This document shows, one piece after another, positions 20,412-44,567 of a stretch of DNA of 64,000 nt. The notes beneath the pieces were generated by a model that was not told where the DNA came from, made no database searches, and saw only the letters and a program-made list of their open reading frames with translations. Source of the stretch: a virus (Duplodnaviria; Caudoviricetes). The stretch is taken from positions 1-64,000 of IMG/VR virus record IMGVR_UViG_2907233695_000001; one strand, given 5' to 3'. The position numbers and the translations under genes were made by a program. Numbering within the stretch: position 1 is the stretch's first letter; each line of letters opens with the position of its first letter.

Positions 20412-20477
20412 TTTACATCTCCTTTTTCTAATGAAACGTGACTTTTATCGGATTTTTAGTTTCAAAAAACTCAGTAT

Positions 20478-20888
20478 TTATAAGGAATTTTCGATTGCCT
20501 CTTTCAGTCTCTCATGGGATTTATAATCGAACTGTTTACCTTTTCTCTTATAAGATGACATTCTGATTAAAACTTCTTCTCGAAATGCTTTCTTTGCGTT
20601 TTCGCTGATCCCAATTTTCTCTTCGATTCTTCTCATTAACTTTTCATCTGGATCATAAAGAGCACCATCAACATCCACTTTCGTCCAATTGCAATAAGCT
20701 TCAATGTGAGTAAGATAGAGGAGAAACAATTCTTGAGCGGTATTATTGAAATAGAATTCTTGCAGGTAATCTTTGGCTACTTCAACAATCGCTAACTCTT
20801 TTTCAACTGCTTCAAGTTGTTCCTTAAGTTGTAATTGCTTATCCTTAAGTTGCAATTCTCTTTCGCTTAACCATTTGATAGTGTCCAT
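20478..20888 (-). CDS. Coiled-coil fused to a PrkA C-terminal fragment
   Basis: IEAYCNWTK...PDEKLMRRIEEKIGISENAKKAFREEVLIRMS..KRKGKQFDYKSHERLKEAIE closely matches the Bacillales PrkA C-terminal region; no AAA+ domain. Confidence 0.85.
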   Translation of the reverse strand: MDTIKWLSERELQLKDKQLQLKEQLEAVEKELAIVEVAKDYLQEFYFNNTAQELFLLYLTHIEAYCNWTKVDVDGALYDPDEKLMRRIEEKIGISENAKKAFREEVLIRMSSYKRKGKQFDYKSHERLKEAIENSL

Positions 20889-20904
20889 TTAACTCCTCCT
20901 TTTA

Positions 20905-21354
20905 TTAAAACACCAACACATAGAACATATATCCAAAGTACGCAGCCCATAGTAGTGAAAGAACAACTTGTAAAAATGTACGCTTTTTCGGCTTCAATAA
21001 CTCTGCTTTATAGATAATCAACTCTTGCTCATTCATCTCGGATGTTTTCTTGCTCTTCTTCATTCTAAGAAAACAAATAATAACAATTGCTACTGCCAAG
21101 ATTGAAGGATACTTATATGGATCAATTTCAATTGCCTTGATGATATATACAATCTGAGCAACAAACAGCGCCATTCCTGCAATTAACGAAAAACATCCGA
21201 ACTTAACGAATTCTTTTGTATAAGCCTCGTCATTACCATCGCCTAAACGCTTAAGTTCCAGTTGTTTCATTTTTTGATTCAGGGATTGAAAAATCCCTTT
21301 ATTGAAAAGAGTGAGTAGACTCGTTGTAATAAATACAAGCGTCCAAAATATCAT
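20905..21354 (-). CDS. Hypothetical membrane protein (about 4 TM)
   Basis: Hydrophobic segments; ATG overlaps the upstream stop. Confidence 0.65.
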   Translation of the reverse strand: MIFWTLVFITTSLLTLFNKGIFQSLNQKMKQLELKRLGDGNDEAYTKEFVKFGCFSLIAGMALFVAQIVYIIKAIEIDPYKYPSILAVAIVIICFLRMKKSKKTSEMNEQELIIYKAELLKPKKRTFLQVVLSLLWAAYFGYMFYVLVF

Positions 21355-21629
21355 TAGCGTTTACCCTTTCCACTTCTAGGGGTTGGCAATCCGCTGCTAA
21401 AGCGCTTCTGCATTGTGCTCTCTTTCTTCTCAACATTGCCCACTGGACGGATTCCTTGAAAAATGAGGTCTTGTTTTGCACATTGTTCTTGAGCTTGACG
21501 AAGTGCTGTTGGATAGAAATCGGATAGATTATCAATAACTACGGATTTTCCAGTTTGAGTTTGTGCGATAGCGTAAAGTTTTTGCATGATTTGTTTTGTC
21601 TCCCTTAAATTATATATAGTTTATATATG

Positions 21630-22415
21630 TTACTTATAAATACAATTACATCGTGAATTACACAATTGGTTAGCAAAGAAGTCGCGCTTACCATCCACCA
21701 TTTCACATCTTGGTTTCCAATCAGTATGTTGTTCAATCTTAGCTACAGTATCAATTACCCATTCCTTTGTCCTCTCTAACTTTTCAATTTCAAATGGATA
21801 AGCAAACTCTTTTTGTCCTTTTTCTCTGGGGAAGATATAAACTAAATGATCAGGATATTTTCCATATTTCTCTTTAATGGGAATGCTGTAGAGATAAAGT
21901 TGCATTAAATTATGATCCAGTTTATCTCCCTCATACTTCTTAGCTGTCTTATAATCAGCAATTACAAATCCATATTTATCGTGATTAGCAACTAGATCAG
22001 GGAATCCCTTTACTTTAACATTTCCTACATCAAATATTTTTTCTTCTTCTGATTCTAACACTTTGTACTGAGAGAAGATTTGTTCATAACTTCCGTCATC
22101 GAAAAACCTATGTATTGATTCTTCATAAGATTTGCCCATTGCAGGGAATGGTGCTTTAAATTCGAAGTTCCTCATTCCTGTTGTGATCTCTTGTTTAATG
22201 TCCCATTCGAACAATTCATTCTTCATCAACTTCTCAATTGTTTCATGAAACAGAGTTCCGTAGAGGCCAAAATAGTTATTGATTCCTCGATCATGCTCTA
22301 TGTATGTTTTATACCAATTCCAGTAGCATCCCTCTCCCATCTCAGCTAATGCAAACCCATTGATACGACTAAACGAATAAATTTTTTCATGCTGCTCTAA
22401 TTGTTCTTCGCTCAA
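21630..22415 (-). CDS. PD-(D/E)XK exonuclease, Cas4/AddB-like with a probable Fe-S cluster
   Basis: YSFSRI, GTLFHE, KGFPDLV, IADYKT, QLYLY; one N-terminal Cys plus a C-terminal Cys cluster. Confidence 0.85.
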   Translation of the reverse strand: MSEEQLEQHEKIYSFSRINGFALAEMGEGCYWNWYKTYIEHDRGINNYFGLYGTLFHETIEKLMKNELFEWDIKQEITTGMRNFEFKAPFPAMGKSYEESIHRFFDDGSYEQIFSQYKVLESEEEKIFDVGNVKVKGFPDLVANHDKYGFVIADYKTAKKYEGDKLDHNLMQLYLYSIPIKEKYGKYPDHLVYIFPREKGQKEFAYPFEIEKLERTKEWVIDTVAKIEQHTDWKPRCEMVDGKRDFFANQLCNSRCNCIYK

Positions 22416-22659
22416 TCAATCACCTCCTTGTATTAATTTACCTTGCTTGGTTAATATATCATCATTTCTTTAGAGCGGTCAATAGTTTTTCAATATTTAT
22501 ATTCATAATTTATTCTTCCATTTTGATTCTCATAACTACCATAATTATTATAAAAATACTCGGCAACAGCCTCCAACGCTTGCAATGTTACTGGAATTGT
22601 CGTTGCAGTTTCTCCATCACGCACACAGATAGCATTAAGCTCTTTCACATATTCAACCT

Positions 22660-23241
22660 TCACTGTACCCACTCCACTCTTTTCACATTGGGAATAGCCA
22701 TGAGTAAACTTTCTACAGCTTTATTTGTTTTCAATCTAGTTTCACTCAACAACTTCTCGTCATGCATCACATCAGTCTTTGCATTAACTCGCATAAACTC
22801 ATATATCCCCTGCTGATCCTCAAATGACAATTCACTTCTCAGCAGCCCCACATTTCTCTCTACGCTAATTTCGTTCATGGGAATATCCATGGATATTAAC
22901 TTAACCTCTGGTTTATGTATGACAATCGTTGTACCGCTAATGCTTATGTTTTTGATGACATCTTCAACGTCATAGCCTAGTTTGAGATAGCATACAGCGG
23001 TGTAATGATACTCTCTGTGACCATAAAATTTGTTATCTATGTATTTGTATTCTTTTGTAACTGTAGCACTTAAGCCAACAATTTGACTTGAGGAGGACAA
23101 TGATTTGATAACCATCGCCCTGTCTATGGTGAATTGTGGGAGATGCATTTCTGCTGGTTGTGGCGTTGGAGATTTATTATGCTCTCTCAATAACATAGCA
23201 ATAAGAAGCAGGGACATTATGATAATTATTATCTTTTTCAT
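22660..23241 (-). CDS. Membrane-anchored DUF4230-like protein
   Basis: N-terminal TM; LKLGYDV...I...P.V pattern. Confidence 0.6.
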   Translation of the reverse strand: MKKIIIIIMSLLLIAMLLREHNKSPTPQPAEMHLPQFTIDRAMVIKSLSSSSQIVGLSATVTKEYKYIDNKFYGHREYHYTAVCYLKLGYDVEDVIKNISISGTTIVIHKPEVKLISMDIPMNEISVERNVGLLRSELSFEDQQGIYEFMRVNAKTDVMHDEKLLSETRLKTNKAVESLLMAIPNVKRVEWVQ

Positions 23242-23244
23242 ATG

Positions 23245-23505
23245 TTACTTACCACAACCTACAGGTTTGCCATCCTTATCAAGTAAAGCAGTAATACCAC
23301 TTGAATCTTTATTATCCTTCATTAAATACTTGCAGCCAGTTTCATGATCCGTAACAATGTAATAGTAGCCATCGATTAACGAATTCTGAACCTGTTCTCT
23401 AGTAAATCTTGATTGAACATCTTCTTTCGCTCGTGCATGACCACAGCTTGACAATAACAACATTAAACTCACAAACAATAACAGTTTATTTTGTATCTTT
23501 TTCAC
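23245..23505 (-). CDS. Small lipoprotein
   Basis: Lipobox LSSC; DHETGCKYL...GITALLDKDGKP. Confidence 0.7.
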   Translation of the reverse strand: MKKIQNKLLLFVSLMLLLSSCGHARAKEDVQSRFTREQVQNSLIDGYYYIVTDHETGCKYLMKDNKDSSGITALLDKDGKPVGCGK

Positions 23506-23544
23506 CTCAATTCAGAATAAAACCTTCATTTTAACGGAATAATG

Positions 23545-24453
23545 TCAGCTAAAAACGCTTGATTTTACTTGTTTTACTCTGTTTATTGTAAGGGTGTTAA
23601 GCGTCTTGAAGTCAATCTTGGGATTCTTAAACTTCTTCAAGATGTTCCAAGTCTCTTCTTTAATCAACTCTGAAAATACTCTTCCTAACAACATAGGAAT
23701 GTACTTACTTTGCCAACCTTCATTCTCATTAACAATCTTAGCGTATTCTTTTTCAACAAACGCTTCAGTCACAAACTCATCTACAATTTGCTGTTCAACA
23801 ATTTCTTTAAGTTGCACTTCTGGGCATCCCATTGTCTTATAATGCTTCTCCTTAAACTCACTTGTAACAATCTTCGCCCATGTTTGACGTTTGTATTTGT
23901 TGTAGAAGTCGTAGTTTTTGATTACGATTCCTTCACCATTTCCTTGACCATCTTTAATTAGAAAATTATTCTGTTCAAGAGTTTTGATGAAACTTTCATA
24001 TGTTCCGTTTTTAAGTTTAACCAGTGGAGCAATATAATCTAATTCGAACTCTTCCAACATTGGCTTATAGATATCATAAGGAATGTACTCTACGTGCTCT
24101 TCATCTTTATCAATTGTTACGTCGAAGATATAGAACCTTCTCCATGCGTCTTCTCTGTAAGTTTTGATCGTATGAGGAACAAGAAATTCTCCATAAAGCC
24201 TATGTGTTGGATGTTTCTTAAGGTATGCTTCAATGTTCTTGTTTGTTAGAATATAAGCATAAAATCCAGCGTTATCCTTGTCTAAGCTCAACTCCCTATT
24301 TCTGCTTCCTGCTTTTACGTTACCTTCATCATCAAGCCAAACTGAAGCATTCGTACCATCCAGTTTAGGGAACACAAGACATTCGCCAAGTTCAATTCCA
24401 TCAACTTCATCTGTAGAATATCGTTCCAAATGCTGATATTTTCTAAACTCCAT
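23545..24453 (-). CDS. RNA ligase (Rnl2-type nucleotidyltransferase)
   Basis: Motif I KLDGTN; GSRNR, LYGEF, FYIFDV, GEGIVIK, AKIV. Confidence 0.85.
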   Translation of the reverse strand: MEFRKYQHLERYSTDEVDGIELGECLVFPKLDGTNASVWLDDEGNVKAGSRNRELSLDKDNAGFYAYILTNKNIEAYLKKHPTHRLYGEFLVPHTIKTYREDAWRRFYIFDVTIDKDEEHVEYIPYDIYKPMLEEFELDYIAPLVKLKNGTYESFIKTLEQNNFLIKDGQGNGEGIVIKNYDFYNKYKRQTWAKIVTSEFKEKHYKTMGCPEVQLKEIVEQQIVDEFVTEAFVEKEYAKIVNENEGWQSKYIPMLLGRVFSELIKEETWNILKKFKNPKIDFKTLNTLTINRVKQVKSSVFS

Positions 24454-24485
24454 ATGACACTCTCTTTTCTATGTATTCTTATTTT

Positions 24486-27400
24486 TTACGCATAATGCAT
24501 TATGTTTGATTGATCAATAGTTCCCAGTAGCCCAAAAACGACTTCTAATTCACCTTCATCCATACCTAAGACGTTAGCTCCTTCACTACACAAACCAATC
24601 CATTTAATTATAAATTCAATAAATGTTTTTGCATATGTTGCTTCTAAATTAATTGAACAAGATTCGCTCTCTCCGTTTAGTACTCCTGATTCTTCGATCC
24701 CATTATAAAACAAATGCAATACAGGGTACTCATGAGTCTGTATATCTAAATCAGACCAGTGATCAAACGCCATTGCAAAACTCTTTTCTAGTGCTCCGTA
24801 TAGCGACCTTGCTTTTTTCGCTTCGAATGAAACTGGAAGATAAATCCTTTCGATTGTTTCAGTGGTTTTGATTAATTGATAATCCAGTTTGATCAACTCC
24901 TCTCGGCTTGTACAAGTACTTTACCATCTTTTACATTTTACGGTCAATAGTTTTATACTAAATTTATCTTAATAATTTCCATTGTGATTCTATAAAAAAT
25001 CGACTTAAACCGACAATCTCACCATTGTCCCATAGGACATCTCCATACTCGTCCTTTTTGATGATGTAGTTGTGGTATATCCCGTTGACTCCAATGGCTC
25101 TCTGGCCTCGTCTGAGCGTTCTGGCTGTGTCTAAGCCGGATAGTAATGGTTCTATAGGTATCACCTCATTCTTCTCGCCTTGAAGCTTTTTGAACAGTTC
25201 TCTAAACTCATGCAAGGCGCGTTCGTCTTGAAAAATAACTTCCTTGTTTTCATGTAATAACTTCTCAATTTCCTTGATTCTGGACTCTTTTTCTTTATCC
25301 ATCCCATGTTCACCCCATATTCATTGAATTACTTCAAAATTAACCATCCGAACGCTGTTCCAAGCGCAAAAGCAATTACAGCAGTTATGCCGATATTCGT
25401 TAAAATTCGTTCCCGATTCAAATGTTCACCGCCTGTTCATTTTGATCTTTGGGGTTCAAAATTTCGCGCATCCAAATGCCCATCAAAGTCGTACTGCATA
25501 CAACTGTCACAAGGTTTTTCATCCGAAACTATATCGGAATGTTTGCAGTCATTACAAATAGACTCACTCATACCCAAGTACACCCTCTTCATTTTGATGT
25601 CTTATTCTTTTTATCTGACTTTTGGCAGTTGTTACTACACCAAAGGAACCTTGACCAATTACCGTATCCTTACGCCACCATACCCAACCTTGAAGAATAC
25701 CAAGACCGAAGGCTGTAATCAATCCTAGATTGATGAATATAATTTCAGCCATTGCCATGAACACCACCTTTCCTCATGAAACGATAGTTTCGTTACACTA
25801 ATTGAAACTATCCCTTAACTGTTTAACCCATAAGTTGCGCTCATTTGTGCGCTCTACTTCTTTTTCCCACTCTTTAGAATGATATTCGATATCTCTCAGG
25901 CAACGTTCAATATTGCTATTCAACCATTCTTGAGCAGTTTGTTTCTTAACACTCTCAGGGTTGTAGTACCCCTCCATGTTGTCACAGTCCCATTTAATAC
26001 TTTCTTTTAATTGGTCAATACAGAATTGTTTAAGCTTGCCATGATCAGATGTTGGTGCTTGCCAAGCATAAACATCTACCAGCATTTTTGTATATCTATT
26101 TTTCGTTTCAAGCTTTTCTTGAGCATACTTCTTTTTTCTTTTCAGTTCAGACTGATACTCACCTTCTGTTTGTGCTTCGATCTCATCATTACTCATACAC
26201 TGCAATTCCTTTAACCGCTCCCTTGCTTTTTCTATTGCATTCTTACTATATGTACTTGGTTCAAACTCTGGGATTGGTGTGCCTAATGGCTCATCTCTCA
26301 TCATAATTGTAGCACCAAAAGCACGAGCACATTGCATAATATAATCTTTTACATCTGTAATTTTACCTTCGCTTACATCATGAGTATAACCTGTTGGCAT
26401 ATCCTGAACATCTCCTTTAATTTTTTTAGAATGAAACTGTTAGTTTATTTGCTTTTTATACTTTATATAATCAATGATTGTCGCCACTCCAAACATTAAT
26501 GAACCCAAAAACCAGAACCAAGATGTAAATGTATTGGGCACAATATATCCATACAATCCTGCAAAAAGTGCCCCTATAGTACAGACGCATCCAAAGATCA
26601 CTGCTACCAAGCTCATATTCATATTGATCCAATCCCTTTCTTACATTAAATGCAGAATACATTCAAACGGTATCGCCGTAAAGATGATTCCAAGAATAAA
26701 CCAAAGTAAATGTCCATGTGTCATCTTCCACTTGCGTCCATTTCCATATATCACGTTAACTGTTGCAAATAACATTGAAACGATCATCCAAATATAGAAT
26801 ATAATAGTCCACATTTTATGTATTCAACTCCTTCGAAATCGCTATTTTATTTGGATTAATTATACGATGCTTCTGGTTCTTTATCAGGTATCACTTCATC
26901 AGAACTTCCATCTTCATCAATAATTAACTTTGTATAGTTTTGGGTTAATTTCATAAGATAAATTTCAAAATCGTTTAAATGTCTCAATGATTTTAAAGTG
27001 TGTTCCTGATCAAATCCAATATCCCATCCTTCTTTCTTATCCTTTTTCCATCGAGACAAACGAATGGTAAAATTCATTTCCTCATCATGCTCACATTCAA
27101 AATTTAGTACTGCATATTCGAACGAACTCCAACTTTTATCCTCGTTATAGTCAATATTATAGCTAACTTCTACAGGTTCATAACTTACACCTTCATCATA
27201 ATTTATCTCTAAATCATCCGTTTTTACATTCTCCGCTACATATTTCATCCACTTCTCATAAAGTTCCGATACTTTAATTGTCTTGAGTTCATCTTGTGGC
27301 TCAATTAAAGACTTGAAATTGCCAAGAATTTTCTTGTTTTCTAAAGAAGAGTTCTTCAAGACTTCAACTAAGACATTATCCAATTTCACAATATAATCAG

Positions 27401-30400
27401 AGTAATCATAGTTTTCGAGATAAGGAATCATAACAGACTTAACTTGTTTTTCAATAATCTTAGTTACGTCTCCATATGAACCAAACATACTGTCTAGTGC
27501 ATTTTTAATTCCCTTTTCAAGTTGTTCTGAGATTAATGTCTCCACTACTCCATCTGCAAGTTTAGCTGCAATTACGTCTTTAATACTATTTTCTAATGTC
27601 ATATGTATTTATCTCCCTTTTAATTTTCCTAATAAAAATCGTGTTTCATTTCCATTCTTCTAAATAAACATCATCATCAATTTCAGTTATAACAATATTT
27701 TCAGTAAAACCTAATTCATTCTGAATCCATACTCTTGATTCTGGATTGATGTTTTTTAAATATTCAATTAGTTCCCCAACATTCATTTTCTATCTCCCTA
27801 GACAATCGTTGTTTTATGCCGATTTATTTTTTAATTCTTTTAGGTACATTTCTTGATATTCAATTTCGGAAATGGTCTCTACTAACCCCTCGCTGCGTTC
27901 CTGCAAGTTAAAACTCGCCTGATAATAAATATCGTTTTCGCTTGTCACAAAACTCGAAAGTTCTTCTCCTTGAAATCGCATAACTCCATAGATAAAGTTT
28001 ATTTCGCCAAGTTGTCTAAAATCAGATAATCCTTCATCGGTAACAATCTGTCTGTATTGCTCAAGCGTCTCTTTTGCTCTTTTAGTATTGTTTTTCAATT
28101 TACCGTTCTTACCAAATAACTTTTTATTTTCGTCTTTAGTGAGATCATTGAATTCCACCCAAAGTTCATCAGGCACAAGTGCCATTTTGTCAATCTTTTC
28201 ATTTAGCATCGCACTCACTCTTACGAATACGTTGTGCCACAATGGTTTCTGTTTAAAATGTTTCTTAACCGCTTTATCATAGTCTGTCCCACGTGTAATT
28301 TTAAAACACTGATTCATCTATACCTCTCTCCTCTTACCATGTTCTGAAGTGCATTCTATCCTCATCTAGAAAATCTACAAAGTCACTTACTCCGTTTTTT
28401 AGAAATCCAACTTCAAAAATATCAACTAATTTTTCACTTGCTTTACCTAAGATGTTAATTTGACCCTCATTCGAAGCCAAAGTAAAATGATCTTCTTTTT
28501 GAATCAATTCATAATCCAAATCCTTAGTCCATGTGTGAGGGAATAACTCTAGGTTATCCTTTGCGTAAACTCTGTATTTTTGCATATGTACTGCCTCCTT
28601 GTATAATTTCATCTTCTATGTATTTTACGTTGCAAAATCATCTTAACCACATTCACACCTAGTAGAGATATTAGTACGTATAGGGCTGGAGGAGATATTT
28701 TGATTAGTGTGTATAAATACGGATGTTGACTAGCCCATTGCCACATTAACCATTCAGTAACATGGCTGTTTGATCCACTACCACTTAACCAATTATTGAA
28801 CATTTAACGCCTCCTTTAATCTTCGTCAAACTCATTATTAAGATTTGCCAATCCATAATATAGATGATATTTCGCACACGACAAGTCTAATGCTGGATTA
28901 TGTCCAGCTTCTATTACTCGCTTTACAATTTCATATGCCTGCTCAATTAAGCCTGCTGCTTCTCTCTCTGTCACTGTCTCACTCCTTGATAATTGGAAGT
29001 CGATGAGATAATTTTTCCTTAGCCCCATGCAACTGATTCCATTCTTTTTTGTCATAATCCCATCTATGTATTGATTTTGGAACTTTATCAAAGCTCACTT
29101 GAACTTCAGCATATAAGTCCCATGAAGTCCAATTATCAGGAGCAGGAACAGTAATGATTGCATGAGATTCATCTTCCGTTACATAGCAATAATAATCTAC
29201 ATAAAATTCTCTCTTATCTTTTTTATGGCTTTCTTCTTCGGTTGTAATTTTTATATCTCTTGGGTTCTTCAAATGACGGTTTAGCATTGTTATTCACCTC
29301 TTGAAATTAGTCTTTTATTCCTTTACAAATTGGACACGAAATTTAGTTCTATCACTGGCGCATTCGCCTACTACTTTAAAGTAGTATATATCTTCTTCAT
29401 CACCAATTTTAAATCCAAACTTATCAAAATTGCTTGACTTTGATACTCTGAAGATTTTTCCTACATTAGATTTATCCTGTATAACTTCGCAAAGAATCCG
29501 CATATTTCACCCCACCAATTCATCAATTCGACTATATGCTGCTTCGATCATGTCCTCGATTCTCTCTGCTTCCAATCTCCACTGTGCAATTTGTTCTCTC
29601 AACTCTTGAATCTGCCGTTCGTTTTTCATATGTATAACACCTCATATTATGTATTTTAGTTTTATACCAGTACCTTATTACGCTTGCACCAAGCTTCGTA
29701 ATATTTCTTCCAATGCAACTCCTTAAGCTCCTCGCTCACCTGATAAATCTTAGCCTCAGTATCCTTGTACATATCCACTACTTCGCCATTCCTGTAAACA
29801 AAGTTGAGATGATAATATCTCTTAGTAAGAGTGCCATCTTCTGCTCTGGCAATAACCGTTCCCAATTCTACGCAGCGAGTGACTTTATACTCAATCTCTT
29901 CATCGCTTTCACACTTTGATGAGCTTAGTGGACAAATTTGCTGATACTTTTCGATTACCTGCTTTGAAATTTTCAGATTAACCAGTTCCCTTCCTTGTCG
30001 CTAAATTTCTCTTTTAATTTTTTCAACTCATCAATTCTTGCCCAAACCTGTGAATTTTGAAATGCGTCCTCATTCCTGATGCTTGTTAATCTAAGTTGTT
30101 TTAATTGATCCATTCTTTTATCAACATATTCGGTAACTGACATTGGCGTATTCCCCTTGTTTTGGTTTCGTGGCTGTACTGGCCTGTTGTGTTTGTTTTC
30201 GTTCTTCAACTGGTAAAGAGTAATATTTTATGATATCGTCTATGTTGTTAAGCTTCATCTATTTCATCCAATCCATATCCATTTTATATGTATTATTTAT
30301 GTATTTATCTATAGTAATCTTCGCCTAAACGTTCCTTTTCCTTTTTACTTGATTCCGATAGAAACGATATTGTGATGCCAGCCATGAAGAGCCAAATTAG

Positions 30401-30852: not shown

Positions 30853-30894
30853 TTTTAATTCTCCTTTTTTAATTTGTTATGTATAAAAAATGAA

Positions 30895-30952
30895 AAGTGC
30901 TATACTTCATGTCTGTGATGTAAGTATAGCACTTAGATGGTAAATTTGTCCA
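30895..30952 (-). promoter_or_regulatory. 13-bp inverted repeat downstream of primase, containing the -10 of a promoter (TGGACA-18-TATACT)
   Basis: AAGTGCTATACTT...AAGTATAGCACTT at 30895-30934. Confidence 0.5.
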
Positions 30953-30979
30953 CTATTTTTTTAATTGTTTTTGCGTTTT

Positions 30980-32089: not shown

Positions 32090-32096
32090 TGAGGAT

Positions 32097-33056: not shown

Positions 33057-33072
33057 TTATTACCTTCTCTCA

Positions 33073-34578: not shown

Positions 34579-34588
34579 TTAAGCCTCC

Positions 34589-35155: not shown

Positions 35156-35167
35156 CTCACCTCCCAT

Positions 35168-35212
35168 TTGCCACTCAATCAATATTCCATTATAATATAA
35201 GAACATATATTC
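35168..35212 (+). promoter_or_regulatory. SigA promoter TTGCCA-17-TATAAT with a LexA (Cheo)-like box at the start site
   Basis: -35 at 35168-35173, -10 at 35191-35196, GAAC-atat-ATTC at 35201-35212 (one mismatch to GAAC-N4-GTTC). Confidence 0.65.
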
Positions 35213-35228
35213 CCGTAAAGGTGATACC

Positions 35229-35612
35229 ATGACTAACAACCACGCAACTAACGAAGAGATGGAACTAATCAAGAAGCACATTATCCTTCCCTTGATGCTG
35301 GATGTAGTGCAGAAAAACATAGAGGATTTGAGCCTCAATCAGTCTACGCTTAAACCACTTTACATTGCTTCCTGCGAAGCCGTGATGAATCTAATCCATC
35401 AGGATATGGCAGAGAATAGAAAGTTGCTTAAACAAGCTAACATAAAGATATTTGATCGAGATCAATCCAAGTATCCTTTGTTCCACTATCCATACATGGT
35501 GCGAGGATACCATTTCACGTTTCAAATGCGCAGAGAGTTAATCAAGAGTGAGATGAGCACGATGCTCCCCAAGTATGTCAATCGCGTTATCCAAATTATG
35601 AATGGGCAATGA
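35229..35612 (+). CDS. YhjD-like protein
   Basis: EMELIKKHIILPLMLDVV...LKPLY...YMVRGY pattern recalls Bacillus YhjD; AAAGGTG RBS; own promoter. Confidence 0.6.
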   Translation: MTNNHATNEEMELIKKHIILPLMLDVVQKNIEDLSLNQSTLKPLYIASCEAVMNLIHQDMAENRKLLKQANIKIFDRDQSKYPLFHYPYMVRGYHFTFQMRRELIKSEMSTMLPKYVNRVIQIMNGQ

Positions 35613-35622
35613 AACCGAGATT

Positions 35623-35817
35623 TTAATGCAACTCAATCTTCTTAAATCTTGGTTTTGCACCATGTTCAGTCTCAACAAATCCGAAGAACATATCCTTTGG
35701 ACGTAGCCAAATGTTGCCACTTTCATTCTGATACACAACATATTCTTCTAGTGTTTCCGTATGTACGCCTTCACCAATGTATGTATAGATTCCACCTTTG
35801 TAATGCTGAAACTTCAT
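35623..35817 (-). CDS. DUF1653 family protein
   Basis: FQHYKGGIY...HTETLEEYVVY...WLRPKDMF...PRF. Confidence 0.85.
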   Translation of the reverse strand: MKFQHYKGGIYTYIGEGVHTETLEEYVVYQNESGNIWLRPKDMFFGFVETEHGAKPRFKKIELH

Positions 35818-35833
35818 ATTTTATCCTCCTATG

Positions 35834-35906
35834 TATAGATGATATAATCACTACCAAGATTTAACTCGGTAATGTGATTATATCATCTATAGTTTATTTT
35901 AAACAA
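35834..35906 (-). promoter_or_regulatory. 18-bp perfect inverted repeat containing a TATAAT -10 box
   Basis: TATAGATGATATAATCAC (35834-35851) / GTGATTATATCATCTATA (35874-35891); TTGTTT-18-TATAAT on the minus strand. Confidence 0.55.
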
Positions 35907-35925
35907 TACTTTTTCGTAATTTATT

Positions 35926-36456
35926 TTAACTAATTCTTAGATGCATTTTATCGGTAATGAGCTGCACACCCTCAATTTCTTTACCTGCTTTCAAATCCTC
36001 TAGGATGCTCTTATTATCGATTTTGTCAGGTTGAGGGATACGATAAGCCTCTGGGATTTTTGTCTCATCTACAACGCCAACAGATGGGTTGTTCTTTTGT
36101 AGTCTTGCAGTAAACTTACCAGCCTTAATCTTATCAATGCCATTTACCTCAAGAACACTTTGCGTATATGATTTCAGGCCATCAAACTTATTCTCCAGAT
36201 ACTTGCGCTTTTGAGCCAAACGTTTCTCTTCTTCTTTATACGCCTTAATATCCCCTTCGATATTCTTCATAAACTTGGCGATATTCTCAACCTTATTCTC
36301 CAATGCATCTTGAATGCCATCAAGAGTATCGATGAACATCTGCAAATCGTCTTCGGTCAAATCCTCTTGATCCAATGCAGCTTCAACAAATTCATTAAAT
36401 GCTCTGTACTGGTCAGCCAATGCGTAAAGTTGTGTCATATGTATACACTCTCCCAT
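35926..36456 (-). CDS. Siphovirus Gp157 family protein
   Basis: LYALADQY...DTLDGI..ALENKVENIAK..KN...EEKRL...QKNNPSV...IP...DNKSI...LKAG.EIEG. Confidence 0.85.
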   Translation of the reverse strand: MGECIHMTQLYALADQYRAFNEFVEAALDQEDLTEDDLQMFIDTLDGIQDALENKVENIAKFMKNIEGDIKAYKEEEKRLAQKRKYLENKFDGLKSYTQSVLEVNGIDKIKAGKFTARLQKNNPSVGVVDETKIPEAYRIPQPDKIDNKSILEDLKAGKEIEGVQLITDKMHLRIS

Positions 36457-36560
36457 TATTTATTTAATATTATTTATGTATTTTGCATTTAATTTATGTC
36501 GTTAAAATTACAATTTCATCGTAATTTACGTATTAAAAATTCCTTATAATCATTGATTTT

Positions 36561-37406
36561 TTAAACAGCCTCGTGGTGCAATTTTTTTAATCTCTCAACG
36601 GTTTTTTCACAATATCCTCGATCCTGTTCAATACATATCCATTTTCTATTGTTTATCTCTGCTGCAACAGCCGTAGTTCCACTACCGCTTGTATTGTCAA
36701 GAACAACATCTCCTTCACTTGTATAGGTTTTAACCAGCCACTCAAATAATTCAACAGGTTTTTGAGTTGGATGTAATTTGCCACTAGAGTTATGAACACA
36801 TTTTATGTATAACATTTCATTTTCAAGTTCTAATGCATCTAATGCATAAGCGTCTTCATAATCAATTACATCATCTGGCATAAGCCAATCACTTTGACGA
36901 TCTATGTATTCTTCTCTCTGCTTACCGTAATTTGTTGTCTTAGAGTTTGTCTTATTCCCTGATTTAACTTGAAATGTTCTTGGAATCTGCTGCGGATTAT
37001 AAGTTGGAGGATTTTTATAAAATACAACAATATCCTCAAATGCACCCATCGGCATTTTCCTAGCATTGAGATTTCCTGTTTTTAAATTTTTGCGCCACAC
37101 CATACAATATTTGAATAGTTTTTGGTTACTCATTATAAGCATACTTGTAAATGGTTGTTTACCAGTTAAAACGATTGCTCCGTTATCAGCAATGATTCTC
37201 TCGTACTGTTCCCAAAGTTTGTTAAAAGGAATGACTTCATCCCATTTATTTTGAGTTGTACCGTATGGAAGGTCAGCCAAGATTAGATTAATCGATTTTT
37301 CTGGTAATTTAGACATTTCTTCAATAGTTTCACCATTTAAGAGCATACCAAATTTATTGTAATAGAAACTTTGTTTTGCCAGTTCTCCTAATTTGATAAA
37401 TATCAC
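36561..37406 (-). CDS. Orphan beta-class N6-adenine/N4-cytosine DNA methyltransferase
   Basis: Motif IV variant ADLPYG, HPTQKP, motif I VLDNTSGSGTT; no adjacent restriction gene. Confidence 0.9.
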   Translation of the reverse strand: MIFIKLGELAKQSFYYNKFGMLLNGETIEEMSKLPEKSINLILADLPYGTTQNKWDEVIPFNKLWEQYERIIADNGAIVLTGKQPFTSMLIMSNQKLFKYCMVWRKNLKTGNLNARKMPMGAFEDIVVFYKNPPTYNPQQIPRTFQVKSGNKTNSKTTNYGKQREEYIDRQSDWLMPDDVIDYEDAYALDALELENEMLYIKCVHNSSGKLHPTQKPVELFEWLVKTYTSEGDVVLDNTSGSGTTAVAAEINNRKWICIEQDRGYCEKTVERLKKLHHEAV

Positions 37407-40102
37407 CTCAAAGTTATTGTTTAATTAAGATAAAATCATGTTTTCGTGGGCTTTTCTGTTTTGAAAAACCCTTATAAATGCTGAATTTTTAACACATGTC
37501 TACCACGGTCAAAACTTTCCTCAAGTTGTCTTTAAACTCATCTAGTGTGTAATAAAAAGCAGTATAATCATTTCCATGGTTCTCAAAATGACACACAACC
37601 CACTTGGGCAAATTTTCAAATTTGTGTTTATGTGCATGGCTCAACCAAGACATCCATGTATTATCATCGGCATTTCCTGAGTGCAACTGCTCATATAGTT
37701 CAACCTGTGTTTCATCTTCAAAATAAACTAATTTAATTTGCTTGTTGTAAGCAGGGAAGTAATCAGAGATGTCAATTTGATTGATAAGATTAAGTGTCTC
37801 GTGAACTAATGCATCTTCTTCTCTTTCGAATTCTCTTCCATCTGCTGTGACAAAAATTTCTTTCTCTTGCATCTGCTCAACTTTTACAGGAACTTGCTTC
37901 ATGATCTTTTCCATTCTATATTCTCCTCCTCTTAATCAGCCACAGCATAAGCATGTTCGCACTCAGCCGTTTCAACTCTATCCTTACACTTGCAACCATT
38001 ACCTTTCTCGCAGTCCCAATACACTCTCCTGTTCCCACAGTCGCAGCGACTATCTACCCCATCCCAACCTCTACAATCTTCACATTTATCATCACCAGCA
38101 AAATCAAACCAAACTTCATTGTTATCCATTGGTTATACATTCTCCTTTGCATATGTATATAAATGTTCGCTTATGTAAATAATTTTAATGCATCGAAGAA
38201 CTTGCTTCCCTTCCGAAGAGTCTGCCATTGGGTGGACTCTTTTTCATGAGGAAATGCTGCTTTTATCAACTTTCAAGTTCATTAAGAAGATATCTAAACT
38301 CGGCTAATTTTGTACAATAAAATTCATATTTCTGTTGCGCTAACTCATATTTATGCTTATGTTCTATTCGTTCTTGATCAAAATTAGCAACACATTTTTC
38401 ATAACTATTAATATATTTTTGTAAATTGGCCTTGGTTGATTCAATGCTCATTTTAGAATCCCTTCCTTATAAATTCTTTATTGCGAATAAAAATTACTGA
38501 ACTTGTCTTCGATTGATTTAAGCTTATTCATAACAATTCGCAAGTCCTCTTCGATTTCTTCTTTAAACCTCTCAATACTACCGTCATAAAAGTATAAATC
38601 GGCAGATAAATCAGTTGCTTTACATTTGAGTCTATGGTACTCATGCAAATATTCAATGGCCTGATTTTTCATATTTCACCCTTTGAAATCCAAGTTTATT
38701 GTAAATCACTTTTGTTACAATACTCATGACAACTTTCTGCCTCTGTTAAGAAGTCGCCTATTGGTTTATTAAATTCCCCACAATAAATCATGTATATTTT
38801 TTCTTTGACATCACTACTTCTAACCTCGCACCATCCATCTGTATGAATACATCTAGTGCATGATTTTTCATTGTCCCAATTAGGGAATAACTCTTTAACT
38901 TTCGAAACCAATTCCTCCCAATCTTTTCCCACCTCGGCGCACTCCATTCGAAATACAGATTTATTTGCTTAAATACTCAGTATATCTATTTGAATTTGCA
39001 GCAAAATCATACAATACATCGACAAACTTGTCTGCGTTTTGATTGCCGCTATCGTAAGCAGCGTTCACAATTCTCCATAGATCAATCGCATCTTCTAAAG
39101 ACATTGTAAGTGTGAATTCTGGCTTAACTGGCTTCGTTGTTTCATTTAACTCCATGCATCATTCTCCCATTGAAATAAGATTTTTATTTGCCTTTTCATT
39201 CTGGTTGCATAGAAATAAAGTAATTATCTAAATCATCAATATGTTCCATTTCCTCTAAGTTACCATTGTCTTTTGCAGAATAATAACCTCGCTCCAATAA
39301 TTTACGAAGTAGATGATAATCCTTTTCGGTAATTTCAATTTGTAATGTTTTCATTTTTAACCTCCCTATGAAAGAAGAATTTTAATTTATTTTCTTTCGA
39401 TAACATTTGCGGCATATGTTTTAGGGTAAGCCCCAATTTTACCTAGAGCTTTTAAAATAATGTCCTTTTCAGTGGAATTTTCTTCAATTTCAACCTCTAC
39501 AACTTTAGATGCTTTCATGAATGGATTTGGTACATAAACACCAAAGTAAAAATAAACATCATACGTTTTTATTTTCATCATCCTCCAAATACTTCTCCAA
39601 TGCCCACTGAAGATGCTGCGACTTAGTTTGGTACTCCACTCTACTCATACGAATGTCATGGAGCACCTTCTTTATGTCCTTACCCTGTCTCATTATTTCA
39701 TTAACCATATCATCAATCTCATTTTTGTTTATGTATTCAATTACTTTGTTTATGTTTATCAACACCAGTTCTCAACTTGAAGTGTTCTTCACCTTTGACT
39801 TCCTGTTCAGTGGATCGTCTACATCTTAAGCAGCGGTTCAAATGTTCGCTTGCATATAGTTCAACTTCGTGGCCTTCAAATGCACAGTGGATACAGGTCT
39901 CTTTAGTTATGGCTTCTCAACTCCCTCAATTGCTCAAGTGCCTTCAGTTGATCTTCGAGCGAGTATTTGCCGAGGAGAGTTGCAAGCTCAGATAGAACAT
40001 CATCAAATTTTTCTTCTGGGATTGAATGAATCAGTTCTTTAAAATTCGATAATGACTCTTTCGGTTCCATGTTATCAACTCCCGTTGAAAGCATTGTTTG
40101 AT

Positions 40103-40900
40103 TTAGAACATAATAGCACTTGAAATACTCTCTACAGTCTTCAAAACGTCATTTTTTTCACGTAATACATGAGCATTAAATTTGCTATTTTGAACATTTC
40201 GATATGCGCTCATAATTGTACTGCTTCGACTATATTGATTGATTTCAACATATTCGAACTGATTTACTTTGTTCAAGATATCCTTTAATACACGAACAGA
40301 TACATCATTGTCGCTCGTAAGATTATCGCCATCACTATATTGGAATACATAGATATCTTGATTCTCATAATCAATATAGTTAATGCGTTCATTTGCTTTA
40401 TTTAGGCCAGAGGAGATAATAGTCCCACCTGATTCGCCTTTTACAAAGAATACATCTCTATGTACTTCTTGCGCTTCGGTATGGTGAGAAATAAACCTAT
40501 GGTTAACTTTCTCATACTTTAGTTCAATTAATTTTTCAGTCCACAATGACACGCATTGGCTCAAATACTTTTCAAATGATCCCATAGAACCAGAAGAGTC
40601 AATAATGGAGATAATCGTTGCAGATTTTTTCTTGGTGATTGGAGTAACAATATTCAATTTGTTTTTTAGTGCTGTAAATATAGATTCTACATTTTCATTT
40701 CCGATAATTACATATTCGTCTGCCAGTGAATACTTCAGATCAGTAGTTGTAATAATATTGCTTTGCATACGTTTTAGGATTTCATTTTTCATATCTTCGA
40801 CTTGTCTGTGAAGTTGTGGCTCTTTATCGAAAGCAGCTCTACCAAATGATTTTGCAAAATCCTCTAGAAGTTTCTTGTTATCAATTGTATTAAGTTCCAT
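40103..40900 (-). CDS. YhbH/YeaH (DUF444) C-terminal vWA-like domain with an unrelated N-terminus
   Basis: IIDSSGSMGSFEKY, FISHHTEAQEV, FFVKGESGGTIISSG, IYVFQYSDGDNLTSDN; ATG 40900 with AAGGAG RBS. Confidence 0.85.
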   Translation of the reverse strand: MELNTIDNKKLLEDFAKSFGRAAFDKEPQLHRQVEDMKNEILKRMQSNIITTTDLKYSLADEYVIIGNENVESIFTALKNKLNIVTPITKKKSATIISIIDSSGSMGSFEKYLSQCVSLWTEKLIELKYEKVNHRFISHHTEAQEVHRDVFFVKGESGGTIISSGLNKANERINYIDYENQDIYVFQYSDGDNLTSDNDVSVRVLKDILNKVNQFEYVEINQYSRSSTIMSAYRNVQNSKFNAHVLREKNDVLKTVESISSAIMF

Positions 40901-42025
40901 GTTATTTCTCCTTTTTTTATGTATTAAAGGTTTATTTATCTTCGATTCCGTCAATTTCTATATAATATAACCTTGATAACAAACTTTTGGGGTCTTTACC
41001 TCCTACTTTTCCGGTTAAAATCTACCTTTCATTTCCAATAAATGATTGGATTAGCCCAAAAATGAATCATTTGTCTAATTGATTTATTTATCACTTCTTT
41101 TGTTTCTTCAGTTAGATTGTCTTGCTTAAGCAAATTCAAGAAATAATCCATTTCCTCTTTAAAATTATCCCAAGTTTTTAATTTAACTTCTTCCAATTCC
41201 ATAGGTGTAGTAATTAATTGTGATGGCAATGCTATATCTTGTTCCAATAACTTCACCTCGATTCCAATCAAATTTGCCTTTCAAAGGTATTTATCAATGA
41301 ACCATTGACATCCAAAAGAGAACATGGCTATGGAAACTATTAAAACTTTTTCAACTCTAAATTGAGTTTGTTCCACTATTCCATAAGAGATTCCAAACAT
41401 TAAGGATGACCAATTCCACTCTGCAAACAAATTTACATTCTTAGTCATTCTTTCCTCCGTATTCATTTCATCTATTGTAATTCCAATTTATATAATTAAT
41501 TTCTAAATGTCCTAACGATAAAGTCCAATCAAGACAAGAATCGATTCCTTTTCTTGCTCCATTCGTACTAATCCCCCATTGTGCTTCCGTGTTGGCATCA
41601 GAATCATCTGGATATAGCCGTTTATTTTCTTTTCTGATTCCACGAAACCACGATATATTTAAAGTTCTTGTGTTCTTTTTCCACCACAATTCAAAAATTC
41701 TCATTTTCATCTCCCTCATAAAATTCGCTTTTCAACGGTTTTTCAACTCGTCAATTTCATTCTGCTGGTCTTCGATTATCCTCTTTAACCTATCAATGAA
41801 TAACTCTTTACCGACCATCAATTCATTTACTCTGTTCGTCTGTGATTTAAGACGCTTAATCTCTTCTTCGTACCACATGTCATTATTCTTTACTTTTCCA
41901 AGTGTATAATTTACTTTATCTGCTGCAAGAGATGCGATATGATCCATCTGTTCATTACTTAACGTAACATTAAAACTTAAACCCTTCAGAGTACATCACC
42001 TCACTTTCCTCAAGAAAGTTCCATT

Positions 42026-42298
42026 TTATCCAATTACTCGATACCTCGTATAGTGCTCATGAACTTCTGGCTCTAGAATTTTTTCATCGACCATTCGATT
42101 GATCAAGCGCTCTCCCTGTTTATAGCCTACTCTACAAGTCCTTTGTAATAACGATACAGAAGCGTATGCCTCATTCTCCGGATGGCTCTCTTTGGCTTTT
42201 ATTACAGCAGCTACAGCAAGAGGATATTTTTCTTCTTCCTGTTGTCTAAGAAATGCTTCCCATCTTTCATTTTCTTCTTTTTTTGGCTTCTTAGCCAT
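42026..42298 (-). CDS. Stand-alone FtsK/SpoIIIE gamma (winged-helix) domain protein
   Basis: ASVSLLQRTCRVGYKQGERLINRMVDEKILEP matches the gamma consensus ASxSxLQRxxRIGYxRAxRLIxxxExxGIV; 90 aa. Confidence 0.75.
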   Translation of the reverse strand: MAKKPKKEENERWEAFLRQQEEEKYPLAVAAVIKAKESHPENEAYASVSLLQRTCRVGYKQGERLINRMVDEKILEPEVHEHYTRYRVIG

Positions 42299-42329
42299 TA
42301 AGTTTATGCCTCCTCATAAAAGTCCAATT

Positions 42330-42716
42330 TCAAACCCATTCCATCAACTCTCGAACAGTAGGAATATCGGCCTCAAGAAAATCATACATCCAAAGTTCAT
42401 CTCTCTTAATCCAAGCTAAAGCTTCATGTTCGTAAAGTACTGGTTTACCCAATTCGATATCGCACATATATGTAAGCAATCGAATGTTGTCGTGTTGAAC
42501 ATCTTTTACCATATCACCGACTTTTACTTCGCATCCAATCTCTTCGATTACTTCTCTCCGCAAAGCTTCTTCAGGGGTTTCGTCTTCTTCAACTTTCCCA
42601 CCAATAAACTCCCATTTGTTATATTTATATCGCTTACCACATAAAAATCTGTCAGTATCGCTGTTATAGATTACTGCTCCGACAACTAATTGCATTTTGT
42701 CACTTCCTAATATCAT
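42330..42716 (-). CDS. Nudix hydrolase (MutT/NudG-like)
   Basis: WEFIGGKVEEDETPEEALRREVIEEIG Nudix box. Confidence 0.9.
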   Translation of the reverse strand: MILGSDKMQLVVGAVIYNSDTDRFLCGKRYKYNKWEFIGGKVEEDETPEEALRREVIEEIGCEVKVGDMVKDVQHDNIRLLTYMCDIELGKPVLYEHEALAWIKRDELWMYDFLEADIPTVRELMEWV

Positions 42717-42722
42717 TGGGGT

Positions 42723-42768
42723 TTAACTTCCATACTCCTGAAACACATCTCGTCTACCGCGTTTATAA
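42723..42768 (-). repeat. Diverged 46-bp duplicate of the 3' end of gene 43267..43563
   Basis: Encodes YKRGRRDVFQEYGS* versus YKKGRRDIFQEYGK* at 43267-43312; gapless alignment. Confidence 0.85.
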
Positions 42769-42770
42769 AT

Positions 42771-43277
42771 TTATACGGTCTCTCTATTGACATGCTTCCA
42801 TGTTATCCCTAGTCTAATTTTTGATATTGCATCAGCTATTACACCGTACTTCCTTCCTAAATCTGCATTCGTGCTGGATTTATCTTTGAGTATTTCAAGC
42901 ACATGCTCTTCGGTTAATTTAGAAGTGTGTACCTTTTCTCCTTTTGCTTGTCTATTTCTTTCAACTTTATCACGCACATTGTCTCCTTGCGTTCCCAATA
43001 TTAAGTGTTCTGGGTTAATACATTTTGGATTATCGCAAGTGTGCCTTACCACCAACCCTTCTGGAACTTCGCCAAATAATTCATTGTAAATGAATTTGTG
43101 CATTACGGAAACTTTTTTGTCGAACCAATACCTTATATGACCGCCGCTTTCTTCACTGCTGGCGTAATGTGAAGTACAAACAAAACACCCATTGTCATCA
43201 ATGATAAATTCTATGGGTTTCCTCTTAAAACGACCATCATCTTTCATTTTCCCTTTATTTTCTTGATTATTTTCCAT
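42771..43277 (-). CDS. Free-standing HNH homing endonuclease (start corrected to ATG 43277)
   Basis: VVRHTCDNPKCINPEHLILGTQGDN; C-terminal HTH. Confidence 0.88.
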   Translation of the reverse strand: MENNQENKGKMKDDGRFKRKPIEFIIDDNGCFVCTSHYASSEESGGHIRYWFDKKVSVMHKFIYNELFGEVPEGLVVRHTCDNPKCINPEHLILGTQGDNVRDKVERNRQAKGEKVHTSKLTEEHVLEILKDKSSTNADLGRKYGVIADAISKIRLGITWKHVNRETV

Positions 43278-43563
43278 ATTCCTGAAATATATCTCTCCTA
43301 CCTTTTTTATAATCTTGTAGTGGATCATCAACTTTTTTACCCCACTTAAACTTACCAGAATGGTCACAGACGGACTTTCTTGACTCAACACGGTAGTCAG
43401 TGCCTTCTGGGAGGATATCAGTCCAATATGTATCTCCTAGCTCTTCAAGCAATTCCACAAATTTATGCTGCCAATCTTCAGGCATGGATTGTAATACACT
43501 TCGAGGAATGGTTAAGTATTGAGCATATGTAAGGCCAAACCACAAATGGATGTCTTTCTTCAT
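43267..43563 (-). CDS. Conserved phage hypothetical protein (probable HNH target gene)
   Basis: IHLWFGLTYAQYLTIPRSVLQSMPEDWQ. Confidence 0.7.
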   Translation of the reverse strand: MKKDIHLWFGLTYAQYLTIPRSVLQSMPEDWQHKFVELLEELGDTYWTDILPEGTDYRVESRKSVCDHSGKFKWGKKVDDPLQDYKKGRRDIFQEYGK

Positions 43564-44567
43564 TCAATAAGCATTCCTTTGCAATCTCATCGAATTACGT
43601 GTTGCTTCCAATACCTGTATAACAACATCTAATGATTTAATGTCATCGAATTTCATAACCACATGTGTATCAAAACTGTCTAATGTTTGTCCTTTTGACT
43701 CCTCCCACTCTGATCCAATTTCTCTTGGTTGCGACAGTATAAAAGCAACACCTTCTGTACGCCCATTATCATCTTGGATGTCTCCGACAAATATATCTCC
43801 ATAACCAAAATGCAAACACTTTATATTGTCCCTAGTGACGATTGGCATCTTTGCCCTCCTTATAAAAACCAAATTTCCTTAGCTTTTAATTTATTTCGCA
43901 GAGTCCTCAAACAGCTTAATTTCCTCTAGTATTTCTTCAAAAGCTACCCTTGCCAGATCGATTGGGTCATCCATTCTCCAACTCCTTTGAGTGATAGTTG
44001 CAATGTAATTTAATTTCCGTTTTGTCAGTTCAACTAACTCCCAAGCCTTCTTCTCACTATCAATTAGACTGTAAATTTCCTTTTTGTCTAATCTCACATA
44101 TCCATCATAATCAGCGTATTGCAAAGCAAGGTCTTTTTCGTTATCGTTCATTGTGCTATCCCCTCCTAAAATTTCCCCTTGAAAACGTCATTTTATTGGA
44201 AATATGCTTTAGAAAAACCCTTATATATCAAGGGTTTTTCAACTGGTACTTAACCTTAATCCTGCCCCAATCCCAATCAGATGAGAAATCAACATATTTA
44301 ATCTTCTCAGAGTTCTCTCTGATCCATTTATGCATTAAATCAATTGCTTCGTTGTGTGTTTTCCCTTCAAATGTTTTAAATAGCATTATGTATTTTGATC
44401 ATAACTCCTCAGTCCTTGTAAATTGATTGGAAGATAATATTCTGGGTTAGTATCCTGCTTTTTAATTTCCTTCTGATGCTGCCATTTTGATTTATTATTG
44501 AAATACGGTTTATATTTACTTTTTTCACTTTTAAATATTGTGGTCAACTTATCAACCTCCAAAAAGT

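Follow-up and report, generated by a model that had tools for sequence, protein, structure and literature searches.

A composite of a 28-bp element and a 16-bp dyad, apparently an undescribed gene-junction signal of SPbeta-like phages

The promoter-early stem-loop (PeSL) elements of T4-like phages are composite terminator/promoter cassettes (PMC2839356, PMC4122927). Here, we describe an element of comparable build in the first 64,000 nucleotides (positions 1 to 64,000, the window) of virus record IMGVR_UViG_2907233695_000001. The window is the first 64 kb of a contig, C13, of 164,118 bp and 35% G+C, which, judged by its gene content, is an SPbeta-like phage, presumably of Paenibacillus. At four places in the window a 16-bp dyad, TRAAA-N6-TTTYA, lies at a gene junction, and a second element of 28 bp stands at a fixed distance from it; the pair is a genuine composite signal of gene junctions in SPbeta-like phages, conserved and apparently undescribed so far. 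Like the PeSL, this is a small composite motif with a stem-loop that occurs many times per genome, at the borders of small accessory open reading frames (ORFs) and at indel or replacement junctions. Unlike the PeSL, it has no sigma-70-type promoter that we could find (no −35/−10 pair at 16 to 18 bp in any copy), its second part is a 16-bp dyad that lies over a stop codon and abuts a Shine-Dalgarno sequence (SD), the spacing is fixed at 16 to 17 bp, and the carriers are SPbeta-like siphoviruses of Firmicutes. The location at replacement junctions that characterizes the PeSL was found in relatives of C13 and at the dyads of SPbeta and phi3T.

A second parallel is offered by the start-associated motifs of Cluster K mycobacteriophages, SAS and its extended form ESAS (PMC3203893). 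They share with our composite a short motif just upstream of many start codons, a second, inverted-repeat element immediately upstream in a subset of sites, and conservation across relatives. However, the SAS includes the ribosome-binding region and has nearly always one orientation, whereas the dyad is free in orientation and includes the upstream stop codon; furthermore, the ESAS spacer is variable, the composite spacer is fixed, and the sequences are unrelated. Since the architecture is found in both and neither sequences nor hosts are related, the likeness would lie in a possible mode of action and not in descent.

Within the SPbeta group itself, the described multicopy site is SPBRE (AATACAAAWAATATGTATA), the operator of MrpR (YopR), which is present at about 12 sites, mostly within sigma-A promoters; the MrpR peaks obtained by chromatin affinity precipitation sequencing (ChAP-seq) were reported in ten promoter regions containing SPBRE (PMC10516654). 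SPBRE resembles the dyad in being a multicopy intergenic dyad of the same phage group that sometimes sits just upstream of an SD, and C13 encodes an MrpR-family protein. Nevertheless, TRAAA-N6-TTTYA is another motif, located elsewhere in SPbeta, and most of the 36 SPbeta dyads lie outside the ten MrpR ChAP-seq regions. The stoperators of Cluster A mycobacteriophages are asymmetric, have one orientation, are bound by the immunity repressor, and stop elongating RNA polymerase (PMC9283540). They too are short sites that are scattered by the dozen across a phage genome in short intergenic spaces, but the dyad occurs in both orientations, and it is the geometry that suggests a roadblock here. Integrons, finally, combine an attI site adjoining the integrase gene intI and a cassette promoter with attC sites, have R and L boxes (RYYYAAC/GTTRRRY), and conserve the structure of attC while its sequence is free. 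The composites resemble them in that they are imperfect palindromes, adjoin the 3′ ends of small accessory genes that share one orientation, and mark places of gene exchange. They differ in that there is no adjacent integrase, in that the arms are TRAAA/TTTYA and not RYYYAAC/GTTRRRY, in that TATAAGGGTTTTT of the second element is invariant while the folding energy ranges from −14 to −0.7 kcal/mol, and in that elements also occur in the late structural region. Full-text literature searches, which included SPbeta papers and did not cover Lazarevic 1999, returned no description of the dyad or of the hairpin-plus-dyad composite.

Composite sites and junction dyads in C13

The four composites of the window are listed in Table 1. 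Read directly, and with the element boundaries of a preceding sequence-only reading, the distance from dyad to second element is 16 bp at all four of them; at sites 3 and 4 it becomes 17 bp if a leading G is left uncounted. The 28-bp element starts with an A-run, holds TTATAAGG inside, and ends with a T-run. In the sense direction, the order is the same at the four sites: upstream stop codon, hairpin element, 16 to 17 bp, dyad, SD, and next gene. The sequence-only reading was correct in reporting the fixed spacing, the inverted element of site 1, and the upstream ORF that stops in or at the edge of each element, and it had rightly named the PrkA C-terminal fragment and the N6/N4 methyltransferase among the flanking genes, the others being a Gam-like gene and uncharacterized ORFs. 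It had also taken both parts for palindromes. This stands for the dyad, but only at site 4 is the second element a true palindrome or hairpin; at site 3 the folding energy is −1.9 kcal/mol (or a shifted-register hairpin forms, since GGGTTTTTC of the element can pair also with GAAAAGCCC in the spacer), and at sites 1 and 2 it is −0.7 kcal/mol.

Table 1. Composites and selected genes of the window. Dyad sequences are given on the strand indicated in brackets.
Feature	Position	Strand	Sequence	Remarks
Site 1, dyad	20432-20447		TAAAAGTCACGTTTCA (minus)	Followed on the minus strand by SD and ATG of ORF 20070-20411
Site 1, second element	20464-20491	+	AAAAAACTCAGTATTTATAAGGAATTTT	Inverted relative to sites 2 to 4; barely folds; stop TAA (20478-80) of the PrkA-fragment ORF inside TTATAA
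Site 2, dyad	36503-36518		TAAAATTACAATTTCA (plus)	
Site 2, second element	36535-36562	-	GGAATTTT variant	Barely folds; methyltransferase stop TAA (36561-63) at its edge
Site 3, dyad	37431-37446		TAAAATCATGTTTTCG (plus)	One mismatch to consensus
Site 3, second element	37463-37490	-	TATAAGGGTTTTT on the minus strand	Stop TAA (37489-91) of ORF 37489-37914 at its edge
Site 4, dyad	44180-44195		TAAAATGACGTTTTCA (minus)	Followed by SD and ATG of ORF 43891-44151
Site 4, second element	44212-44239		A-run/CCCTT...AAGGG/T-run	Perfect hairpin, −14.1 kcal/mol, bidirectional terminator type; stop TGA (44228-30) of ORF 44228-44386 (ending in YQLKNP) in the loop
Possible decayed composite	23518-23575		TAAAACCTTCATTTTA, 17 bp, AAAAACGCTTGATTTTACTTGTTTT	Dyad 23518-23533, second element 23551-23575; the upstream ORF 23545-24453 reads through the second element
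N6/N4 DNA methyltransferase gene	36561-37406	-		Between composites 3 and 2, which are in direct orientation
MrpR (YopR)-family repressor homologue	57393-58361	-		Pfam MrpR_N_CB and MrpR_C_cat
YopQ/DndB-like gene	58389-59840			Adjoins the MrpR-like gene

The composite stands out statistically. The 14-mer TTATAAGGRWTTTT, allowing up to one mismatch, has four matches in the window compared to 0.55 expected, and none of 100 shuffles reached four. The pattern TATAAGG[AG][AT]TTT occurs five times in the whole of C13, and all five copies lie 16 to 18 bp from a dyad, for which we calculate a random probability of about 0.0065 per copy. The view that a fixed spacing is not an effect of AT richness was borne out. 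The fifth copy, at C13 position 123427 and beside a dyad, is a perfect terminator-like hairpin (−11.6 kcal/mol) that sits after a virion structural protein gene, and the end of such a gene is a classic position for a terminator. A generic search for an A-run followed by a T-run 14 to 19 bp from dyad-like sites gave six matches (1.0 expected) and added the possible decayed composite at 23518.

The dyad itself is far more frequent than the composite. C13 has 37 exact copies of TRAAA-N6-TTTYA compared to 6.4 expected, with enrichment at the 6-nt spacer only, and 28 of the 37 pair one TAAAA arm with one TGAAA arm, which is more than independent arms predict; the N6 varies at essentially every dyad. 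On the coding strand, the upstream ORF takes its stop codon from the 5′ arm at no fewer than 25 sites, as TAA or, if the dyad is reversed, as TGA. The next gene has its SD and start codon within 12 to 31 nt, and the 3′ arm abuts the SD with a gap of 0 to 5 nt at most junctions. With respect to transcription, about 12 dyads are in the sense and 7 in the antisense orientation in the 1- to 75-kb region. This suggests that the dyad is read as DNA, or at the least speaks against an RNA signal tied to one strand.

The same dyad is found in other phages. SPbeta (NC_001884; L001/L002/L005) has 36 copies of TRAAA-N6-TTTYA and 0 to 8 for other spacers; they are mostly TAAAA-N6-TTTTA, and most overlap the stop codon of a gene (e.g., at 83688, 86886, 92394, 113664, and 131162). 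A Paenibacillus relative has 24 dyads in 21 kb, and five complete IMG/VR phages (G061 to G065) have 24 to 47 each compared to 3 to 5 for a control pattern; the MrpR homologues of these five are only 28 to 35% identical to that of C13. In the 7.4-Mb host contigs, the dyad with its N6 spacer is not enriched, and the enrichment is phage specific.

Conservation in relatives and position at mosaic boundaries

As a test that could have spoken against it, the sequence-only reading had named relatives in which neither the spacing nor the association with gene boundaries is kept. The reading fared well on this test: the relatives keep a spacing of 16 to 18 bp as well as the gene-boundary position, and a profile built from relatives only recovers the copies of C13 at 44.2 kb (E = 1e-6), 123.4 kb (4e-6), and 37.4 kb (6e-4), with the one at 20.4 kb at 0.13 and the one at 36.5 kb weakly detected. 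A search of IMG/VR with a composite pattern found 61 loci, with a gap of 18 nt in 33 of them and of 19 nt in 15, a value that follows the pattern's own definition; after dereplication, about 10 independent families have the 18-nt gap. Measured uniformly from T-run or A-run to dyad, the distance is 16 to 18 bp in nearly all real members. The scan of the five complete genomes with a 13-mer yielded 11 copies, of which five have a dyad 17 to 18 bp downstream, three have one 16 to 17 bp upstream, and three have none. Six extra copies of the 13-mer in these genomes had not been selected for a dyad, and three of the six have one 16 to 17 bp away. The second element is found on either side of the dyad and in either orientation.

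The general layout of the element is an A-run that precedes TATAAGGG by 9 nt, an inner stem that is often CCCTT, a loop, and a T-run after TATAAGGG; the A-run is present in all copies and the T-run in nearly all. Bona fide members have 7 to 10 of 10 stem positions able to pair. Perfect terminator-like hairpins are also present in the relatives L075 and L076, the perfect copies ranging from −11.6 to −14.1 kcal/mol, and a compensatory change is seen in the L012/L024 group, which has AAAATC...GATTTT compared to AAAAAC...GTTTTT in other copies. SPbeta lacks the second element. In the 7.4-Mb host contigs, the 13-mer is essentially absent, and the second element does not occur in this context in the host chromosome; we have therefore discarded a host-derived terminator type. 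A composite tied to one gene family was discarded too, since the genes beside the composites in different phages, and the proteins they encode, are unrelated apart from one pair.

The profile from relatives also found a lone second element without a dyad, GAAAAATCCAGTAAAAATAAGGGTTTTTT, outside the window at C13 105873-105901 (L082). It lies between an 863-amino-acid ORF in the position of SPbeta yonO and a homologue of YonN (HU-like); the 863-amino-acid ORF has no significant Pfam match and no tblastn match to YonO. Other dyads of the late region adjoin ordinary terminators, one of them with a 16-nt gap: at C13 129548-129620 (L081), the dyad TAAAACATTCGTTTCA is followed after 16 nt by an unrelated strong A-run hairpin terminator, AAAAAAACTGCATCTATAAGTATAGGTGCAGTT, at the distance that the composites have between dyad and hairpin.

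A comparison of SPbeta with phi3T places the dyads at mosaic boundaries. Homology blocks between the two phages start or end exactly on dyads at 83687, 86899, 87603, 92392, 92747, 95123, 113654, and 131149, and dyad and N6 usually move with the downstream gene. Dyad-bearing junctions take 9 of the 22 junction-located breakpoints while making up 18 of the 106 junctions overall (p of about 0.01 by a binomial estimate, from one phage pair, with endpoints that are not all independent and with junction type as a confounder). G061 and G065/G064 share a composite of about 80 nt (A-run, hairpin, T-run, 16 nt, dyad, and SD) whose flanking genes are unrelated on both sides. A third homologous locus has the hairpin loop turned around in place, and the dyad arms there switch from TGAAA...TTTTA to TAAAA...TTTCA around the same N6; the inversion of the loop in place fits a structural palindrome. 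This switch with unchanged N6 was observed in the homologous dyads of G061 and G065 (L075 versus L095 and L078 versus L101), so that the arms change jointly and the site retains exactly one G:C arm. Compared to the homologous junction in G061 (L080), site 1 of the window is inverted.

The assignment of C13 to the SPbeta-like phages is based on a large terminase that is 69% identical to SPbeta YonF, on portal, YonN, and YopP, and on the adjoining YopQ-YopR pair (Table 1), whose YopR homologue has its nearest relatives in Paenibacillus records (49 to 55% identity). All plausible genes from 1 to about 72 kb of C13 are on the minus strand, and recombinase-like genes are located at 57.4, 92, and 124.9 kb. 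Megablast against GenBank phages revealed no close relative of C13, nor did 60 related host genomes or IMG/VR when searched via the MrpR protein; the behavior at replacement junctions is therefore read from other phages and not from C13 itself. The 35% G+C of C13 compares to about 52% in the 7.4-Mb Paenibacillus-type assembly, a mismatch that is large for a resident phage (the assembly holding C13 totals 7.56 Mb, and the value of about 52% refers to the large contigs). A 111-amino-acid ORF on the minus strand of the window (9448-9783) matches Sigma70_r2 with 28.5 bits, above the Pfam cutoff, and has no region 4; its product may be a minimal phage sigma-like factor. No homologue of it was found in SPbeta or in G061 to G065, all of which bear dyads. 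The window has no Rfam match, and a known RNA family was dropped as a candidate.

Possible roles of the composite

That the composite is a functional unit holds, and it is best explained as a longer version of the signal that SPbeta-like phages use at their gene junctions. A plain junction consists of the 16-bp dyad, usually with the stop codon in its 5′ arm, and with the SD at its 3′ arm; at a few junctions, a conserved imperfect hairpin is added 16 to 17 bp away. As to what the extended form does, we tentatively favor, at somewhat less than an even chance, a terminator-type hairpin that is placed one RNA polymerase footprint upstream of a candidate protein-bound junction dyad and insulates gene units in a manner similar to the PeSL of T4. 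A terminator-type reading is suggested by the sense order at the four sites, by the 123.4-kb copy after a virion gene, and by the late-region dyads beside ordinary terminators. Also in favor are the constant spacing (including that of copies not selected for a dyad), the pairing potential of the stem with its compensatory change, the loop inversion in place, the persistence of the composite between differing genes, and the restriction of the element to phages. The hairpin may act as a (bidirectional) intrinsic terminator or insulator, and a putative protein on the dyad, 16 to 17 bp past the T-run, would halt RNA polymerase while the active site of the enzyme is on the U-tract. Indeed, roadblock studies put the downstream reach of elongating RNA polymerase at about 16 to 17 bp. 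Stalling on the U-tract would give stronger release at hairpins that are weak alone. The result would be a separation of independently regulated units, such as the methyltransferase gene, whose place between composites 3 and 2 gives it the look of an insulated, moron-like unit. As a module of about 80 nt that is conserved between unrelated gene neighborhoods, the composite would double as portable homology for gene shuffling, as does the PeSL of T4.

Several observations weigh against this terminator-and-roadblock reading. With a hairpin energy of only −0.7 kcal/mol, the elements at sites 1 and 2 are not autonomous terminators; the combination of G+C stem-loop and U-tract that marks an intrinsic terminator is present at site 4 and at 123.4 kb, weak at site 3, and absent from sites 1 and 2. 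Furthermore, the 3′ half of the element, TATAAGGGTTTTT, hardly varies whereas the 5′ half has decayed, which is unlike the evolution of an ordinary terminator and suggests sequence-specific recognition. A consensus terminator scan flagged none of the four sites, and neither consensus scans nor reading by eye revealed a promoter that would restart transcription after the terminator, although the terminator and promoter scans are uninformative in that their match counts were at or below shuffle expectation. The MrpR protein of SPbeta, in addition, binds a motif other than the dyad. We have rejected the dyad as operator of the MrpR-like protein: SPBRE differs in sequence, the 36 dyads of SPbeta are separate from it, and the ChAP-seq peaks were reported at SPBRE promoters. 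Moreover, the dyad sequence is unchanged across phages whose MrpR homologues are 28 to 55% identical.

The mosaic data favor a role in recombination, in which cassettes would be exchanged at the dyad or composite, either through a YopP-, YomM-, or MrpR-like tyrosine-recombinase-like protein or through homology of the PeSL type. We regard this as unlikely, yet as the rival that deserves most attention: homology blocks of SPbeta and phi3T are bounded exactly by dyads at eight places, breakpoints appear enriched at dyad-bearing junctions, a composite is kept while both of its flanks are replaced, and the second element of site 1 is inverted relative to the homologous junction of G061. The 5-6-5 geometry fits the core site of a tyrosine recombinase, and the phage has YopP-like and MrpR-like genes. 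However, classical tyrosine recombination requires identical overlap regions. The N6 differs between sites, so that classical strand exchange between them is unexpected, and no recombinase gene was seen beside sites 1 to 4. In addition, the noncoding bases of a junction are little more than dyad and SD, which leaves no other place for a viable breakpoint; junctions with a dyad are also the accessory ones with looser packing, a confounder, and one phage pair was analyzed. The heterogeneity of the N6, the lack of an adjoining recombinase, and the minimal junction DNA weaken the site-specific version in particular. We see little chance that the dyad is the crossover site of an orphan YopP- or YomM-like protein, with the composite loading the enzyme or setting directionality in an integron-like viral device. 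The sequence-only reading had gone in this direction and had seen in the second element an accessory or arm-type site for a recombinase that marks an attI-like point of entry. This did not find support: besides the variable N6, the MrpR-family protein (its gene is at 57.4 to 58.4 kb) has core-binding and catalytic-like domains only and no arm-binding domain, and only the fifth site (123.4 kb) has a YomM-like gene nearby, at 1.4 kb. The second element, moreover, is a hairpin with an A-run and a T-run that makes a good intrinsic terminator in its best copies, and its inverted loops and its occurrence on both sides of the dyad also speak against such a site. The arms are without similarity to integron R and L boxes, and the second element keeps its sequence while its structure varies, which is the reverse of attC. 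An attI or arm-type site is a minority possibility.

It is also imaginable that dyad and upstream hairpin act in the mRNA, in processing, ribosome loading, or translation control, as a start-associated signal just 5′ of the SD. The distance of 0 to 5 nt between dyad and SD at most junctions, the stop codon fixed in the 5′ arm, the movement of the dyad with the downstream gene in mosaics, and an upstream inverted repeat at a subset of sites, as in the ESAS (PMC3203893), are consistent with such a role. Nevertheless, we consider it rather improbable, because the dyad is used in both orientations (about 12 sense to 7 antisense), the commonest sense form sets A opposite C and leaves 4 to 5 A-U pairs that are too weak for a hairpin, late-region dyads follow genes without a downstream SD, and the second element works whichever way it points and whichever side of the dyad it is on. 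More improbable still is a promoter, for host or phage-modified RNA polymerase, with the dyad as downstream operator. The TATAA is invariant and could, as TATAAG or TATAAA, be a −10-like box, with TTGATA as −35 in some copies (it is directly upstream in site 4 and in several relatives); the SPBRE of SPbeta is embedded in sigma-A promoters and can sit just upstream of an SD, and the phage encodes the small Sigma70_r2-matching protein. But TTGATA abuts TATAAG, candidate −10 boxes need 19-nt spacers, and no copy has a sigma-A −35/−10 pair at 16 to 18 bp; we accordingly rejected a sigma-A promoter on both strands of the second element and of the spacer. The element does not keep one orientation with respect to the downstream gene (site 1, L077, and L078 are inverted), and the Sigma70_r2 protein was dismissed as reader of the motif, since SPbeta and G061 to G065 bear dyads and lack a homologue. 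For YonO of SPbeta, a single start site is known and the promoter sequence is undetermined (PMC5467207), and a YonO promoter was put aside with no tblastn match to YonO in C13 at an E value of 1e-3. Nor does the second element read as a long-spacer dyad: its left end is often TRAAA with a stop codon, but there is no agreement among the right ends, and spacers of 19 to 20 nt are no multiple of a helical turn.

Meaning for SPbeta-like phages

SPbeta is a long-standing model of a temperate phage, and yet the literature searched here makes no mention of its 36 dyads. SPbeta and phi3T exchange gene modules at the exact base that the dyad marks, and the composite outlasts changes in the genes on either side. 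The finding bears on how large phages of Firmicutes punctuate their long arrays of small accessory genes, and possibly also reshuffle them; genes for counter-defense and host takeover are among these. Annotators gain a precise marker of gene ends and starts in SPbeta-like phages. Whether it is a terminator and roadblock, a translation signal, or a recombination site, the composite would in each case lend itself to simple bench tests.

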